In this document: one piece after another, positions 849-63,455 of the stretch
How the letters are laid out: the number at the start of each line of letters is the position of its first letter
Position numbering within the stretch: position 1 is the first letter of the stretch
NCBI GenBank assembly: GCA_036280195.1
Contig: DASURF010000022.1
Coordinates: 3,161 to 67,160 of the forward strand
Direction: 5' to 3'
Length of the DNA: 64,000 nt
Source of the DNA: Solirubrobacterales bacterium
Lineage (GTDB): Bacteria; Actinomycetota; Thermoleophilia; Solirubrobacterales; 70-9
Notes under the pieces: generated by a model
What the model was told of the DNA's origin: nothing
Seen by the model: only the letters and a program-made list of their open reading frames with translations
Database searches by the model: none
Made by a program: the position numbers and the translations under genes

Positions 849-937
849 GGAGGGGTGCCGGAGTGGTTGAACGGGGCGGTCTCGAAAACCGTTGGCCCTC
901 GTAAGGGGGCTCGTGGGTTCGAATCCCACCCCCTCCG
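849..937 (+). tRNA. tRNA-Ser (anticodon CGA)
   Basis: Acceptor GGAGGGG/CCCCTCC. Anticodon stem-loop GCGGT-CTCGAAA-ACCGT. Long variable arm and T-arm GGTTCGAATCC. 89 nt. Confidence 0.9.
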
Positions 938-3140: not shown

Positions 3141-3230
3141 CGGAGAGGGTGGGATTCGAACCCACGAGGCGGGTTAACCCCGCCCACGCGATTTCCAATC
3201 GCGCTCCTTAAGCCACTCGGACACCTCTCC
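3141..3230 (-). tRNA. tRNA-Ser (anticodon GGA)
   Basis: Reverse complement gives GGAGAGG...CCTCTCC acceptor, anticodon loop TTGGAAA, long variable arm and T-arm GGTTCGAATCC. Confidence 0.9.
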
Positions 3231-14380: not shown

Positions 14381-16021
14381 TTACTCCCCCGAACGGAGGC
14401 TGCGGTAGCGCCGGATCAGCGCGTTGGTGGAGCTGTCGTGGCGCAGCTTCGGCTCCTCCGGCGACTCGAGCTCGGGGATGATCGCCTTGGCCAGGACCTT
14501 GCCCAGCTCGACCCCCCACTGGTCGAAGGAGTCGATCCCCCAGATCGCCCCCTGGGTGAAGACGCTGTGCTCGTAGAACGCGACGAGGGCGCCCAGCGTC
14601 TCCGGCGTCAGCCGCTCGGCGAGGATCGTGTTCGAGGGCCGGTTTCCCTCCATCACCCGATGCGGGACGACATCCTCCGCCGTCCCCTCCTCCCGCACCT
14701 GCTCGGGCGTTTTGCCGAAGGCGAGCGCTTCGCCCTGGGCGAAGACGTTTGACATGAGGATGTCGTGGTGGCGGCCGAGTGGGTTGAGGGTGTTGCCGAA
14801 GCCGATGAAGTCGCAGGGGATCAGCCGCGTCCCCTGGTGGATCAGCTGGTAGAAGCTGTGCTGGCCGTTGGTCCCCGGCTCGCCCCAGTAGACGGCGCCG
14901 GTGTCGTAGTCGACGTGGGCACCGTCGAGGGTCACGTGCTTGCCGTTCGACTCCATCGTCAGCTGCTGCAGGTAGGCGGGGAAGCGGTGCAGGTACTGCT
15001 CGTAGGGCAGCACCGCGTACGTTTCGGCGCCGAAGAAGTCCGTGTACCAGACGGCCAAAAGACCGTGGATCATCGGCAGGTTGGCGCCGGTCGGGGTCTC
15101 GCGGAAGTGCTCGTCCATCGCGTGGAAGCCGGCCAGCATCTCCTTGAAGCGGGCCGGGCCGATCGCCAGCATCGTCGAGAGGCCGATCGCCGAGTCCATC
15201 GAGTAGCGGCCGCCCACCCACTCCCAGAAGCCGAACATGTTCTCCCGGTCGATCCCGAACTTCGTCGTCTCCGCGGCGTTGGTGGAGATGGCGACGAAGT
15301 GCTTGGCGACAGCCACCTCGTCGCCGCCGACCCCGGCCAGCAGCCATTCGCGCGCGGTCTGGGCGTTGGTCATCGTCTCCAGCGTGGTGAAGGTCTTCGA
15401 GGAGATGACGAAGAGGGTCTCCTCGGGGTCGAGGTCGCGGGTCTTCTCGGCGAAGTCGGTGCCGTCGACGTTGGAGACGAAGCGGAAGGTCATCTCGCGG
15501 CGGCTGTAGTGCTTCAGCGCCTCGTAGGCCATCACCGGGCCGAGGTCGGAGCCGCCGATGCCGATGTTGACGACGTTGCGGATCGGCTTGCCGGTGTGGC
15601 CGCGCCACTCCTCCGAGCGCACCCGCTCGCTGAAGCCGGCCATCCGGTCGAGCGTCTCGTGCACCTCCTTGACCACGTCCACCCCGTCGACCACCAGCGA
15701 GCGGTTGCGCGGCATCCGCAGCGCCACGTGGAGGACGGCGCGGTCCTCGGAGACGTTGATGTGCTCGCCGGCGAACATCGCGTCGCGGCGCTCGGCGACC
15801 CCGCGCTGCTGCGCCAGGGAACCGAGCAGCAGCAGCGTCTCGTCGGTGATCCGGTTCTTCGAGAAGTCGAGGTAGAGGCCGGCGCCCTCGGCGATCAGCC
15901 GCTCGCCGCGGTCGGGGTCGGCGGCGAACAGCTCGCGCAGATGGGTGCTACCGACCTGCGCGAAGTGGGACTCCAGCTCGGCCCAGGAGGGCGCCTGGCG
16001 CAGCGCCGAGGGCTCGGTCAC
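14381..16021 (-). CDS. pgi: glucose-6-phosphate isomerase
   Basis: 546 aa. PGI signatures are [15 protein letters not shown] and [18 protein letters not shown]. Confidence 0.95.
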
Positions 16022-23649: not shown

Positions 23650-23735
23650 CCGCGCGAGGATAGATAGAGCAACGGATCGGCCCCTCCCGCGGGTGGAAGA
23701 CAGGACCCGCAGGCCGAGGCCCTCGTCCCTAAGCC

Positions 23736-25850
<2,115 letters not shown>

Positions 25851-35181: not shown

Positions 35182-35274
35182 TAGGGACCATGGTCTCTGG
35201 CCGGCGGGTCCTGTCTCCGATATTGGGCTCTCCCTAGCGGGAGAGTCCTCAATATCGTCGCCACCCGCCGGAGA
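35182..35274 (+). repeat. copy 1 of a ~95-nt imperfect-palindrome repeat family (sense with recQ)
   Basis: TAGGGACCATGGTCTCTGGCCGGCGGGTCCTGTCTCCGATATTGGGCTCTCCCTAGCGGGAGAGTCCTCAATATCGTCGCCACCCGCCGGAG. It aligns end to end with the copies at 41542 and 49672. Confidence 0.85.
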
Positions 35275-35281
35275 AGTGCCT

Positions 35282-36847
35282 ATGGTGGCCGGTCCGATGG
35301 CCGGAGAGGAGAAAAAGGCTGACGAGCTACTAGGCGTCCTTGGCTACCGCGAATGGCGGGCGGGTCAAAGGGAGGCGGTTGTCGCTGCCCTTGAAGGGCG
35401 GGATTCGTTGATCGTCATGCCTACGGGCGGGGGGAAGAGCCTCTGTTATCAGCTGCCTGGGCTTGCTTCTGAGGAGTTGACGATTGTTGTCAGTCCTCTG
35501 ATCGCTCTGATGCGGGATCAGTGGGGGAAGCTGAGCTCGCAGGGGCACCGGGTGGCGATGATCACCTCGGGGATGGAGGACTGGGAGGTCTCCGAGGCGT
35601 TGGAGATGGTGCGGGGGGATGCGCGGATCGTCTACTGCGCGCCGGAGCGGTTCGGGTCGCAGGTGTTTCTCGACGCGCTCGCCCAGCGCGAGGTCGACCT
35701 CGTCGCGGTCGACGAGGCGCACTGCGTCTCGGAGTGGGGGCACGACTTCCGCCCTGACTACCTGCGCCTGCCCGAGGTCGTCCAGCGGCTGGGCCGGCCG
35801 ACGGTGATGGCCTGCACGGCGACGGCGACGGTGCCGGTCGCGCGCGAGATCGCCACCCGCTTCGAGATGCGCGAGCCCCTGCAGGTGCGCGCCGGCTTTG
35901 ACCGGCCGAACCTCTCCTTCGACGTCGTCGCGCTCGAGGGCAAGGGCTCGCAGGCGCGGCGGCAGGCGCTGCTGGAGACGGGGCTGGGCGACGCGGCCAA
36001 CCTGCCGGCGATCGTCTACTGCGGCACCCGCAAGCAGACCGAAGAGGTTGCCGCCGAGCTGCGCGACGAAGGAATCGCCGCGGTCGCCTACCATGCCGGG
36101 CTCGAACCGGCCCACCGGACGGCGATCCAGGAGCGCTTCATGGCCACCGACAGCGGCGTCATCTGCGCCACCAACGCCTTCGGCATGGGCGTCGACAAGC
36201 CAGACGTGCGCTCGGTCTGGCACATGACGATCCCGACCAGCGTCGAGGCCTACTACCAGGAGGCGGGCCGCGCCGGGCGCGACGGCCTCCCTTCCCGGGC
36301 GGTGATGCTGGCGCTGAAAGCCGACCTCGGCCGCCTCGTCCGCTTCAACGAACAGCGCGCCGGCGACCCGGACCTGGCGATCGCCCGCGAGCGCGGCTGG
36401 CGCGCCTACCACGCGATCAAGGACTTCATCTACGGCAGGGAGTGCCGCCGCCGCGCCCTCCTCGACCACTTCTCCGACCGCACCGCGGGGGCGCCGCTGG
36501 AGCGCTGCTGCGACGTCTGCGACATGCTCGACTGGCTGCCCGACCCGGACACGATCGCGGTCCGCAAGTCGGCGCGGGCGAAGGCTCCGGCGACGCCCGC
36601 TCCCGACCTCGGCCCGGCCGATGCACCCCTCTTCGAGGCGCTGAAAGCCTGGCGACTGGGCGCTGCTGTCGGCAAGCCCGCCTACACCGTCGCCAGCAAC
36701 AAAACCCTGACCGCGATCGCCACCGCCCGCCCGCACGACGAGGACTCGCTGCTGGCGATCAGCGGCGTCGGCCCCGCCTTCATCGAAAAGTACGCCCCCG
36801 AAGTCCTGGCGATCGTCGCCGAGCACGCCCAGCCGCTCGCCGCCTAG
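35282..36847 (+). CDS. recQ: ATP-dependent DNA helicase RecQ
   Basis: Motifs GYREWRAGQ, PTGGGKSLCYQLP, DEAHCVSEWGHDFRPDY, TATAT and QE.GRAGRDG. A Zn-binding Cys cluster and a C-terminal HRDC domain are present. Confidence 0.9.
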   Translation: MVAGPMAGEEKKADELLGVLGYREWRAGQREAVVAALEGRDSLIVMPTGGGKSLCYQLPGLASEELTIVVSPLIALMRDQWGKLSSQGHRVAMITSGMEDWEVSEALEMVRGDARIVYCAPERFGSQVFLDALAQREVDLVAVDEAHCVSEWGHDFRPDYLRLPEVVQRLGRPTVMACTATATVPVAREIATRFEMREPLQVRAGFDRPNLSFDVVALEGKGSQARRQALLETGLGDAANLPAIVYCGTRKQTEEVAAELRDEGIAAVAYHAGLEPAHRTAIQERFMATDSGVICATNAFGMGVDKPDVRSVWHMTIPTSVEAYYQEAGRAGRDGLPSRAVMLALKADLGRLVRFNEQRAGDPDLAIARERGWRAYHAIKDFIYGRECRRRALLDHFSDRTAGAPLERCCDVCDMLDWLPDPDTIAVRKSARAKAPATPAPDLGPADAPLFEALKAWRLGAAVGKPAYTVASNKTLTAIATARPHDEDSLLAISGVGPAFIEKYAPEVLAIVAEHAQPLAA

Positions 36848-41541: not shown

Positions 41542-41635
41542 TTCTCTGGCGGGTGGCGACGATCGGGAGGACTCTCCCGGTAGGGAGAGCCCCCGATCGG
41601 AGACAGGACCCGCCGGCCAGAAGCCCTGGTCCCTA
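41542..41635 (-). repeat. copy 2 of the ~95-nt repeat family
   Basis: Plus strand reads TTCTCTGGCGGGTGGCGACGATCGGGAGGACTCTCCCGGTAGGGAGAGCCCCCGATCGGAGACAGGACCCGCCGGCCAGAAGCCCTGGTCCCTA, which is the reverse complement of copy 1. Confidence 0.85.
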
Positions 41636-41636
41636 A

Positions 41637-42476
41637 TCAGTCGGCGTTGAAAGTCCCAGGATCCGACCCGATGCGCTCGCCCGTGTCCAGCCGCGCCAGC
41701 GCCGCCATGTCGTCCTCGCTCAACTCGAAGTCGAAGACCTCGAAATTCTCGCGGATCCGCTCCGGCGTCGCCGATTTCGGAATCACCACGTTGCCGACCT
41801 GCAGGTGCCAGCGGAGGATCACCTGCGCCGGGGTCCGGTCGCGGTGGGCGGCGACCGTGGCGATGGTGCCGTCCTCGAGCAGGTCCCCCTGCGCCAGCGG
41901 GCTCCAGGCCTCGGTGGCGATCTGATGCTCGTCGTCCCAAGCGCGCAGCTCGGGCTGCTGGAAGCGCGGGTGGAGCTCGACCTGGTTGACGGTCGGCCGC
42001 CGCTCGGCCTCCCGCTCCAGGCGTTCCAGATCCTCGATCCTGAAGTTGGAGACGCCGATCGAGCGGGCGCCGCCTTCCTCCTGGATCCGTTCGAAGGCGC
42101 GCCAGGTCTCGAGGAAGAGGTCACGGTCCGGCCGCGGCCAGTGGATCAGATAGAGGTCGACGTAGCCCGTGCCGAGCCGGCCGAGGCTCTTCTCGAATGC
42201 GGCCAGGGTCGAGTCGTACCCCTGCTGCGAGTTCCACAGCTTGGTGGTGACGAAGACGTCCTCGCGATCGACCCCGGTGGCGGCAATCGCCGCTCCCACC
42301 CCGACCTCGTTGCGGTAGGCGGCGGCGGTGTCGATGTGGCGATAGCCGACGCCGAGCGCCTCCTCGACCGCCTCCTGCGTCTCGTCGGGAGGGATCTGGA
42401 AGACGCCGAACCCGAGCTGGGGAATCTCGACGCCGTCGTGCAGGGTCAGGACGGGGACTTCGGTCGCATTGGCCAT
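41637..42476 (-). CDS. aldo/keto reductase (2,5-diketo-D-gluconate reductase-like)
   Basis: 279 aa. Motifs GYRHIDTA, LYLIHWP, IGVSNF and IPKS. Confidence 0.9.
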   Translation of the reverse strand: MANATEVPVLTLHDGVEIPQLGFGVFQIPPDETQEAVEEALGVGYRHIDTAAAYRNEVGVGAAIAATGVDREDVFVTTKLWNSQQGYDSTLAAFEKSLGRLGTGYVDLYLIHWPRPDRDLFLETWRAFERIQEEGGARSIGVSNFRIEDLERLEREAERRPTVNQVELHPRFQQPELRAWDDEHQIATEAWSPLAQGDLLEDGTIATVAAHRDRTPAQVILRWHLQVGNVVIPKSATPERIRENFEVFDFELSEDDMAALARLDTGERIGSDPGTFNAD

Positions 42477-48686: not shown

Positions 48687-50018
48687 CTAGAGGGCGAGCG
48701 AGACCGGCTCTTCGAGCAGCTGCTTGACCCGGGCGAGGAACTCGGCGCCCTCGGCGCCGTAGAGGATGCGGTGGTCGCAGGAGAGGGTCGCCTTCATCAG
48801 CTGCGCCGGGACGATCTCGCCGTCGCGGACGGCGGGAAGCTCGCGGATCGCGCCGACGGCGAGGATCGCCGCCTGGCCCATGTTGATCACCGCGTCGAAC
48901 TCGTCGATCTCGAACATCCCCAGGTTGGAGACGGTGAAGGTGCCGCCCGAGAGCTCCGGCGGCGTCACCGAGCCGTCGCGCACCTTGGCGGCGACGGTAC
49001 GGGTGTCGGTGGCGATCTGCCGCAGGCCCTTCCTGTCGGCGTCGAAGATCGTCGGCACGACAAGCGCTTCGGAGGCGGCGACGGCGACGCCGACGTTGAC
49101 CCGCGAGTAGAGCTCGAACCGCCCGTCGCGATAGGCGCCGTTGGCTTTCGGGAACTCACGCAGGGCGATCGCGCACGCCTTGACGATCATGTCGTTGAAG
49201 GAGGGCACCACGTCGCCCTCCTTGGACGCGGCCTTGATCGCCGCCCGCGCCGCGACCGCCTTCCCCATGTCGATCTCGATCGTCAGGTAGAAGTGCGGCG
49301 CCGTCGCCTTCGACTCCGCCATGCGGCGGGCGATCGTCTGCTGCAATTTGTTCAGGTCACGAGTTTCGACTTCACCCTTGGCGGTTTCAGACGGAGCCTG
49401 TTGGCCAGCGGGTCCTGCCACCTGCGGAGGTGCCTGCGCTGGATGCTCGGCACCTCCTCCGGCGCCACCCACTGGAGAAGCGCCTCCGGCTGACTCTGCT
49501 TCCTCTACGTCGTGCTTGATGATCCGGCCCCCGGGGCCGGAGCCATGTAGGTCTTTCAGGTTCAGGCCCTTGTCACGAGCCAGGCGACGAGCCAGCGGCG
49601 AAGCTTTGACCCGCTCCCCGTCCTCGGACCCCGGCTCAGCGGCTCGACCCTCGGCGTCAGCCGTCTTCTCTTGTCCCGTGGGTGGCGACGATTCCGAGGA
49701 CTCTCCCGGTAGGGAGAGCCCGGAATCGGAGACAGGACCCGCGGGCCGAGCGCTCCGTCCCTGATCCGAAGCTGCCTGCCCGTTCGACTCCCCGATGCGC
49801 GCGATAGGACTGCCGATCGGCAGAGTCTCGCCTTCCTGGGCCAGGATCTCGGTCAGCGTCCCCGCGACATCGGATTCGTAGGCCATGTTCGCCTTGTCGG
49901 TCTCGATTTCCACCAGCTCGTCGCCGACCGCGACCTCGTCCCCGACCTGCTTCAGCCAGGAGAGGATGGTTCCCTCCTCCATCGAGTCGGAGAGGCGGGG
50001 CATCACCACCTCACTCAT
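48687..50018 (-). CDS. dihydrolipoamide acyltransferase (2-oxoacid dehydrogenase E2 component)
   Basis: Lipoyl domain (IETDKA), PSBD (SPLARRLARDKGLNLKDLHGSGPGGRI) and catalytic domain with DHRILYG. A long linker contains repeat copy 3. Confidence 0.9.
   Translation of the reverse strand: MSEVVMPRLSDSMEEGTILSWLKQVGDEVAVGDELVEIETDKANMAYESDVAGTLTEILAQEGETLPIGSPIARIGESNGQAASDQGRSARPAGPVSDSGLSLPGESSESSPPTGQEKTADAEGRAAEPGSEDGERVKASPLARRLARDKGLNLKDLHGSGPGGRIIKHDVEEAESAGGASPVGGAGGGAEHPAQAPPQVAGPAGQQAPSETAKGEVETRDLNKLQQTIARRMAESKATAPHFYLTIEIDMGKAVAARAAIKAASKEGDVVPSFNDMIVKACAIALREFPKANGAYRDGRFELYSRVNVGVAVAASEALVVPTIFDADRKGLRQIATDTRTVAAKVRDGSVTPPELSGGTFTVSNLGMFEIDEFDAVINMGQAAILAVGAIRELPAVRDGEIVPAQLMKATLSCDHRILYGAEGAEFLARVKQLLEEPVSLAL
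49672..49765 (-). repeat. copy 3 of the ~95-nt repeat family, inside the E2 coding sequence
   Basis: Plus strand reads GTCCCGTGGGTGGCGACGATTCCGAGGACTCTCCCGGTAGGGAGAGCCCGGAATCGGAGACAGGACCCGCGGGCCGAGCGCTCCGTCCCTGATC. It is translated in the E2 frame as RPAGPVSDSGLSLPGESSESSPP. Confidence 0.85.

Positions 50019-63381: not shown

Positions 63382-63455
<74 letters not shown>

Follow-up and report, generated by a model that had tools for sequence, protein, structure and literature searches.

Three structured repeats in a Solirubrobacterales contig are members of a large, undescribed family of palindromic DNA hairpins in soil Solirubrobacterales. The window, the whole stretch of DNA that we analysed, comprises 64,000 nt of a Solirubrobacterales bacterium (GCA_036280195.1, DASURF010000022.1, positions 3,161 to 67,160). 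We observe the family dispersed through Solirubrobacterales genomes; about half of the copies are intragenic and the others lie between genes. At orthologous sites its cassettes are replaced, flipped, deleted or absent, and the inner part of the element is homogenised within genomes. On balance, we think it probable that each repeat is a copy of a selfish, non-coding DNA hairpin element that behaves like the Rickettsia palindromic elements (RPEs) and bacterial MITEs.

The window contains three full copies and a fourth that is internally deleted, each full copy being a 71-nt hairpin within a looser unit of ~95 nt. Copy 1 lies on the forward strand and fills the spacer between efeO and recQ. It consists of a left flank, or shell, at 35182..35200 (TAGGGACCATGGTCTCTGG, with the loosely conserved motif (T)AGGGAC-N5-GCTCNGG), the hairpin at 35201..35271 (71 nt; DNA fold of -24.5 kcal/mol, z = -6.7), and a right flank at 35272..35281 (AGAAGTGCCT) that joins the stem end to give GGAGAAG, which resembles a Shine-Dalgarno sequence. 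The order within this hairpin is N4 (CCGG), CGGGT, an internal loop, GAT-ATT, a tip hairpin with a TAGC loop, AAT-ATC, a loop, ACCCG, and N4' (CCGG). Copy 2 (41542..41635 on the minus strand, hairpin 41546-41616) begins 1 nt past the TGA stop (41637-41639) of an aldo/keto reductase gene, and copy 3 (49672..49765 on the minus strand, hairpin 49675-49745) sits in frame in the E2 acyltransferase ORF 48687-50018(-). The inner triplets of the three are ATT/AAT, CGG/CCG, and TCC/GGA for copies 1, 2, and 3, respectively. The tip 23-mer GGCTCTCCCTANCGGGAGAGTCC occurs three times in the window versus 0.00 expected from 100 shuffles, and nhmmer with the family profile finds the three full copies at E=1e-23 to 1e-25.

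The initial annotation of this DNA had described three copies alignable over ~95 nt, one of them filling the efeO-recQ spacer, and the position of each copy, the alignment, and the placement of copy 1 are all borne out. Its observation that the inner triplet of each copy is fully self-complementary is likewise correct, and its outer stem is kept in general, apart from one C.A mismatch each in copy 2 (CCGG/CCAG) and copy 3 (CGGGT/ACCCA). The three copies are real; however, the annotation overlooked the fourth, which we detected with the family profile and a search for the ends of the element. Copy 4 (23676..23731 on the minus strand; nhmmer E=0.15) lies directly past the TAG stop of ORF 23736-25181(-) and comprises the flank TAGGGACGAGGGCCTCGG, a 28-nt stump at 23686-23713(-) that reads CCTG-CGGGTCCTGTCT/TCCACCCG-CGGG, and then AGGGGCCGAT. 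At its ortholog, L006, a complete hairpin stands between the same flanks. In the second linker of the E2 gene, 49402-49422 (+) carries CCAGCGGGTCCTGCCACC, which resembles the left end of the element (nhmmer E=2.8) and, on the coding strand, encodes ...QVAGPAGQ...; either a very ancient stump or chance resemblance could account for it.

The hairpin opens with a 5' base of N4-CGGGT, followed by the internal loop CCTGTCTC and CGAT-N3-GGG. Its tip is CTCTCCC, a TA(C/G/T)C loop, and GGGAGAG, and the 3' arm continues with TCC, a TC bulge, N3'-ATCG, and a second loop, TCGCC, to end in ACCCG-N4' at the 3' base. The core is a 63-nt cassette, CGGGT...ACCCG, which four further locus-specific base pairs extend to the 71-nt hairpin, and both RNA and DNA parameters give the same three-tier fold on both strands. 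Outside the hairpin, the left flank (T)AGGGAC-N5-GCTCNGG and the right flank AGGAGCGNCT are only loosely conserved: GGGAC is present in 41 of the 112 listed copies, and the shell is ~70-75% conserved among orthologs. The unit length of ~95 nt in the initial annotation arises because this flank was included. Copy-specific complementarity extends over exactly the four N4 pairs, which are Watson-Crick in 95-100% of cases within a copy versus 55-79% when arms from different copies are paired. Beyond N4, pairing ends abruptly at an invariant GG...AG that is never paired.

The family is far larger than the window suggests. The exact tip 23-mer is found at at least 115 loci in 32 species-level assemblies, so that further copies, for which the initial annotation had proposed to look, do exist. 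This sample consists of the exact 23-mer matches listed from species-representative genomes, all of them MAGs; every listed match is labelled Solirubrobacterales, Actinomycetota, or uncultured Actinomycetes, and among the matches listed the consensus is identical across the 32 species. At gathering score, Rfam returned only three tRNAs in the window and left the element unmatched (the three tRNA genes lie at 849-937 (+), 3141-3230 (-), and 63382-63455 (-)), and a permissive Rfam scan gave only chance miRNA-type matches of 15-18 bits versus gathering scores of 60-168. The element had no match among viral contigs, plasmids, and phages, and such elements are not described in the literature that we searched on Solirubrobacterales, Conexibacter, or Actinobacteria. 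The initial claim of a new repeat family that forms a structure is supported.

Covariation of the stems is statistically solid. Across 111 distinct copies among the listed matches from 32 assemblies, in which orthologous copies are not independent observations, 98.6% of stem cells are paired versus 89.1% in shuffles, 229 cells versus 74 have changed on both sides, and the covariation score is 0.210 versus 0.042 when shuffled, a value reached by 0 of 500 shuffles; registers slid along the alignment are at most 51% paired. The covariation that the initial annotation saw in three copies, and proposed to check, thus remains significant with the 111 listed copies aligned. Stem variation in these copies is confined to the two blocks N4 and N3, and the remainder is invariant. 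Most N3 pairs among the listed copies are CGG/CCG (54), TCC/GGA (19), or ATT/AAT (15), accompanied by single-step neighbours, a few of which have C.A mismatches, and these inner types assort freely with the outer N4 types. Mismatches on the sense strand are C.A in 31 cells versus G.U in 8 cells of the 111 listed copies. We do not accept this excess as evidence for an antisense RNA because many of the cells are shared by orthologs and an invariant G.U in the tip favours the other strand.

Many copies lie within protein-coding genes. Copy 3 encodes PAGPVSDSGLSLPGESSESSPPTG (...RPAGPVSDSGLSLPGESSESSPPTGQ...) in frame in a 443-aa E2 acyltransferase, where the peptide lies in the linker that joins the lipoyl domain (residues 3-75) to the E3-binding domain (137-172); the initial annotation had not noticed that this copy is coding sequence. 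Family-wide, 54-66 of the 112 listed copies are within ORFs, in both orientations. Our gene calls come from a simple home-made caller based on GC3, which places 66 of the 112 listed copies inside ORFs, with 64 of the 66 in just two phases; when at least 40 codons upstream are required, 26 listed copies are sense, 27 antisense, and 1 other. A stringent set, for which both sides had to show high GC3 and an open frame of at least 40 codons, retains 30 of 116 listed copies (16 sense and 14 antisense), and all 30 are in the two phases. There is one codon phase per orientation, and the two used phases mirror each other about the palindrome. The sense phase encodes PAGPVSDxGLSLPGESSxSSPPAG and the antisense phase PAGGDDxEDSPGRESPxSETGPAG; both peptides are rich in Pro, Gly, Ser, and acidic residues, flexible, and sited in linkers and loops. 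Of the four other phases, three are open but Arg-rich or hydrophobic and one contains a stop. Insertions or deletions of 1 nt occur in only three of the listed copies (L009, L055, and L072), all outside called genes.

Host sites include the Lhr helicase (one site between motifs II and III of the DEAD domain, and a second site), loops of a Wzy-like membrane protein, the PyrK-PyrD junction, a DnaX linker, two different E2 linkers, and the C-terminal region of NusA. At the PyrK-PyrD junction, PyrK and PyrD form a single continuous ORF joined by the element-encoded peptide (L046 2690-4546 (+); L110), and the repeat may have fused the two genes. A search with a 48-aa concatenated peptide yielded just 23 short ORFs, all of them called on intergenic copies, and none of the host proteins, so it gives no census of the latter.

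The cassette described above has sister variants that share the ends CGGGTCCTGTC...CGCCACCCG (GGGTCCTGTC...CG(C/T)CACCC) and differ in their palindromic interiors. These variants are 63, 66, 72, 75, and 84 nt long, five of five measured lengths being multiples of 3, and all fold to the same three-tier hairpin. At the E2 site, 120 orthologs that are 75-91% identical carry variant A (~28), variant B (~35), variants C plus D (~48), variant E (4), or deletions (5), all in the linker position occupied by copy 3, and variant B here does not differ in DNA sequence from its copies at unrelated loci. Lhr site 1 similarly holds variant A in L008 and L067 and variant C in L043. Orientation also changes: at the pyrK-pyrD and Wzy sites the element is found in opposite orientations between species, and the flanking GG/AG dinucleotides flip with it. 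At PyrK-PyrD, L046, L075, and L103 carry the element in antisense; L110 and L105 carry it in sense.

In the window, the copy 2 (AKR) site, where we compared filled and empty alleles by eye, carries variant A; among syntenic relatives, L118 has another hairpin variant there and L119 and L120 show no trace of an element. The L118 sequence (15158-15279) is a further variant, GCGGGGCCCGTCTCAGGCTGATGGGGGTTGCC...GGCAACCCCCACACCTGAGCCACCCGCCGG, in an intergenic position; by our boundaries it is 71 nt long and so is not a multiple of 3. We considered other 'empty' alleles as pristine targets and rejected this for E2 in L116, Lhr site 2 in L008, and the Wzy site in L035. These alleles look like hairpin deletions because they retain fragments of the flank or ends; the E2 allele of L116, for example, lacks exactly 63 nt between two CGGG repeats. 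Since several 'empty' alleles resemble deletion stumps, a clean gain is shown at the AKR site only.

Different parts of the element follow different histories. Core positions left unfixed by the search pattern are 96.9% identical between orthologs, versus 67-77% for the flanks, which are partly coding, and 47% for N3. Ortholog pairs share N4 in 70% of cases versus 24% of random pairs, whereas N3 (32% versus 27%) and loop type (58% versus 59%) are shared about as often as in random pairs. Pairs from the same genome, in contrast, match in loop type in 73% of cases versus 60% expected (permutation p=0.0005) and in the N3 triplet in 35% versus 28% expected (permutation p=0.015). The inner triplet and loop therefore follow the genome and not the locus, which points to copying from one copy to another: copies within one genome exchange or re-lay the inner cassette, and each site keeps its own closing base pairs. 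A small set of internally complementary triplets (CGG/CCG, TCC/GGA, and ATT/AAT) turns up in every genome and passes from copy to copy. Because of this exchange, the substitutions that the initial annotation called compensatory are mostly drawn from a small pool of self-complementary cassettes; compensation in the stem is real but, for the most part, is not fresh compensatory evolution at each locus.

Under the selfish reading, the element would be passed as DNA from copy to copy. A putative trans-acting enzyme might recognise the conserved ends and the hairpin, or short-tract gene conversion might proceed through the invariant blocks of 14-26 nt. Both arms could be replaced together (co-conversion), or one arm could be repaired from the other; such arm-templated repair is quasipalindrome template switching. 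We propose that the stems stay complementary without any RNA function because the arms are co-replaced or mutually templated. Selection on host proteins would then filter the phase and length of copies and remove insertions in other phases. Local effects are plausible but would be secondary: a TAG stop and a GGAG ribosome-binding site for adjacent genes may come from the flank, as appears to be the case at efeO-recQ.

Neither the comparison of same-copy with cross-copy complementarity nor a listing of all flanks revealed a target-site duplication. Copy-specific similarity stops at the stem, and the outer 4 nt are inverted and not direct repeats. An 8-bp duplication was considered and rejected, as the self-palindromic CCCGCGGG class alone agrees with it and CCGGCGGG/CCCGCCGG does not. 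In ~1 Mb of sampled loci we found no longer autonomous element or IS with the same ends, and the candidates for one, obtained with a regular expression for a left end without a nearby right end, were all variants or stumps. Two further observations count against a selfish element. The locus-specific outer four base pairs stay complementary, which gene conversion alone does not explain, and the 32 species have one identical consensus even though many sites are old and common to several species, a pattern that host selection on every copy could account for equally well.

Host selection is the substance of one alternative, in which each copy is a DNA structural element, a putative protein-binding or cruciform site for a nucleoid protein, topoisomerase, or recombination factor, kept by purifying selection much as is envisaged for REP/BIME, and copies in ORFs are tolerated as their peptide is harmless. 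The far higher identity of resident orthologous copies than of their flanks fits this alternative, as do the single consensus among the matches listed, the alternation of invariant blocks with covarying stem blocks that is expected of a protein-recognised hairpin, and the near-equal numbers of sense and antisense genic copies, which would suit an orientation-independent function. However, orthologous sites lose copies, keep them with internal deletions, or exchange them for variants that differ in sequence, all without visible consequence, selection acting site by site does not predict homogenisation within genomes, and no binding protein is known; we regard this alternative as unlikely. We give a similarly low standing to a more radical proposal, a self-renewing hairpin cassette system in which fixed sites closed by a palindrome, many in essential genes, would repeatedly have their 63-84-nt cassette overwritten, flipped, or excised by a structure-specific activity, without target duplication of the transposase type, or else every copy would be a host-selected DNA hairpin site. 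If true, the cassette system would be a mode of mobility or homing so far undescribed in bacteria that continually rewrites protein linkers. That the peptide itself is selected, as a linker or motif, with the DNA palindrome incidental, is scarcely credible. The peptide does sit in linkers of multidomain proteins, and public annotation includes it in proteins; but identical DNA occupies intergenic spacers (copies 1 and 2), the two orientations yield different peptides, synonymous positions are as invariant as the rest, and at one site variants whose peptides are unrelated take each other's place. A protein module is already contradicted by the intergenic and antisense copies.

A cis-acting structured RNA, with the hairpin acting in the host transcript in processing, stabilisation, termination, or translation control, corresponds to the folded RNA proposed in the initial annotation. 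The stems covary, all three window copies are in transcript sense, and as RNA they fold stably (-52 to -58 kcal/mol for 109-116 nt; z -4.3, -2.9, and -0.95). Between co-directional genes, 18 listed copies are sense versus 5 antisense, and the flank is able to give a stop codon and a GGAG ahead of the next start. Folding of the reverse strand, however, is no less favourable (-59.1 kcal/mol, z = -6.0), one copy in two lies in coding sequence, with both orientations represented, and 7 of the 18 sense co-directional cases belong to one orthologous group (recQ). The hairpins of window copies 1-3 are followed by AGAAGTGCC, AGAATTGAGG, or ACAAGAGAAG and not by a T-run, so none of the three has the form of an intrinsic terminator, a GC-rich hairpin with a T-run directly after it. 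The lack of an Rfam match also speaks against a structured RNA, as does the predominance of C.A over G.U among sense-strand mismatches, and lengths in multiples of three and a single phase per orientation point to translation and not to RNA function. The shared sense with the host transcript that the initial annotation reported holds for the window copies but not for the family, which uses both orientations in genes and beside them. Of the two structures that it offered, a functional folded RNA is disfavoured and a cruciform or hairpin DNA stays viable: the two orientations, the coding copies inside genes, and the swapped triplet types favour a constraint at the DNA level, and we consider an RNA function for the family to be quite improbable.

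Some intergenic copies could nevertheless have been co-opted, given the stable RNA hairpin, the GGAG and TAG signals, and the 18:5 lean towards sense. At the end of copy 1 (35270-35284 (+)), GGAGAAG lies 6 nt ahead of the recQ ATG (35282), and the arrangement ...GGAG-N-CCTATGGTGGCC is also present in five orthologs of the recQ locus (L015, L028, L037, L089, and L113). As this arrangement is kept in five orthologous loci, the repeat may supply the recQ ribosome-binding site. The TAG of the upstream gene is often provided by the left flank.

REP sequences and REPINs, which are mobilised by RAYTs, are extragenic, with a conserved 5' GTAG and a hairpin of 20-40 nt; REPINs are doublets of REP hairpins. 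The present family resembles REPs as a clade-conserved, very abundant set of GC-rich imperfect palindromes without target-site duplication, for which hairpin DNA is thought to be the substrate. It differs in that about half of the listed copies are intragenic and in being a single long three-tier hairpin of 71 nt with a 5' foot, ...GCTCNGG-N4-CGGGT, that lacks GTAG. MIRUs, reportedly described by Supply and colleagues in 1997, are said to be actinobacterial repeats of 46-101 bp between operon genes, in operon sense, with stop and start signals that overlap the flanking genes. Copy 1 at efeO-recQ resembles this intergenic placement, but MIRUs are tandem direct repeats and not long hairpins, and they are not known as in-frame intragenic palindromes.

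In behaviour, the closest match is the Rickettsia palindromic element. RPEs (Ogata et al. 2000, 2002) are described, in PMC10969869, as short palindromic dispersed repeats of about 100-150 bp, many of them in frame in unrelated housekeeping genes, that add a tolerated peptide, fall into several related families, and have no known transposase. With RPEs, the present family shares a palindromic repeat in frame in ORFs, a conserved peptide, and related families (PMC10969869). Our family is found in free-living Actinomycetota and not in Rickettsiales, and we liken it to RPEs by behaviour and not by sequence, in which we expect no relationship, without filing it as an RPE. Its cassette of 63-84 nt is shorter than the RPE lengths given there, it uses both orientations in mirrored phases, differing cassettes swap at one site, and it has two short covarying stem blocks in an otherwise invariant hairpin. 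Bacterial MITEs such as Correia, ERIC, RUP, and QMITE are small, non-coding, multicopy elements with inverted termini that fold to a hairpin, are sometimes intragenic, and can donate regulatory signals (PMC10969869). The element has the size and dispersal of a MITE (non-coding and <~500 bp, with a 71-nt hairpin in a ~95-nt unit at at least 115 loci), and its invariant CGGGT/ACCCG and four covarying base pairs at the hairpin base correspond to terminal inverted repeats. It departs from MITEs in having no target-site duplication, a far higher intragenic share, strict multiple-of-3 lengths, and no parent IS in the ~1 Mb sampled. GC-rich hairpin elements of mitochondria, such as the repetitive hairpin-forming elements of sponges, are likewise short and repeatedly invade genomes, according to PMC2800124; they share with our family the character of invading GC-rich hairpin repeats but are organellar and unrelated in sequence.

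In-frame 'protein-coding palindromes' have so far been mainly a Rickettsia curiosity, and the family described here is an independent and more extreme case, in abundant and mostly uncultured soil Actinomycetota. About half of the listed copies are in coding frames, including those of the core genes for DnaX, NusA, Lhr, PyrK-PyrD, and the 2-oxoacid dehydrogenase E2, and interchangeable cassettes give different peptides at one site in sister species. The family provides a natural system for how DNA hairpins stay complementary, whether by selection, gene conversion, or template switching, and bears on how selfish DNA stays compatible with translation. It is also a likely source of assembly breaks, and it explains hypervariable linkers in host proteins and spurious 'hypothetical proteins' of 65-74 aa in MAG annotations. 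Public protein clusters P0121-P0143 are 65-84-aa 'hypothetical proteins' annotated across intergenic copies, and they are probably spurious ORFs. The window is syntenic with L113, L040 (DASUTJ010000055.1) and L089, L056, L094 (OY969703.1, 16-48 kb), and the distance from the copy upstream of recQ to the E2 copy is 14.5 kb in DASUTJ010000055.1, the same as in the window.
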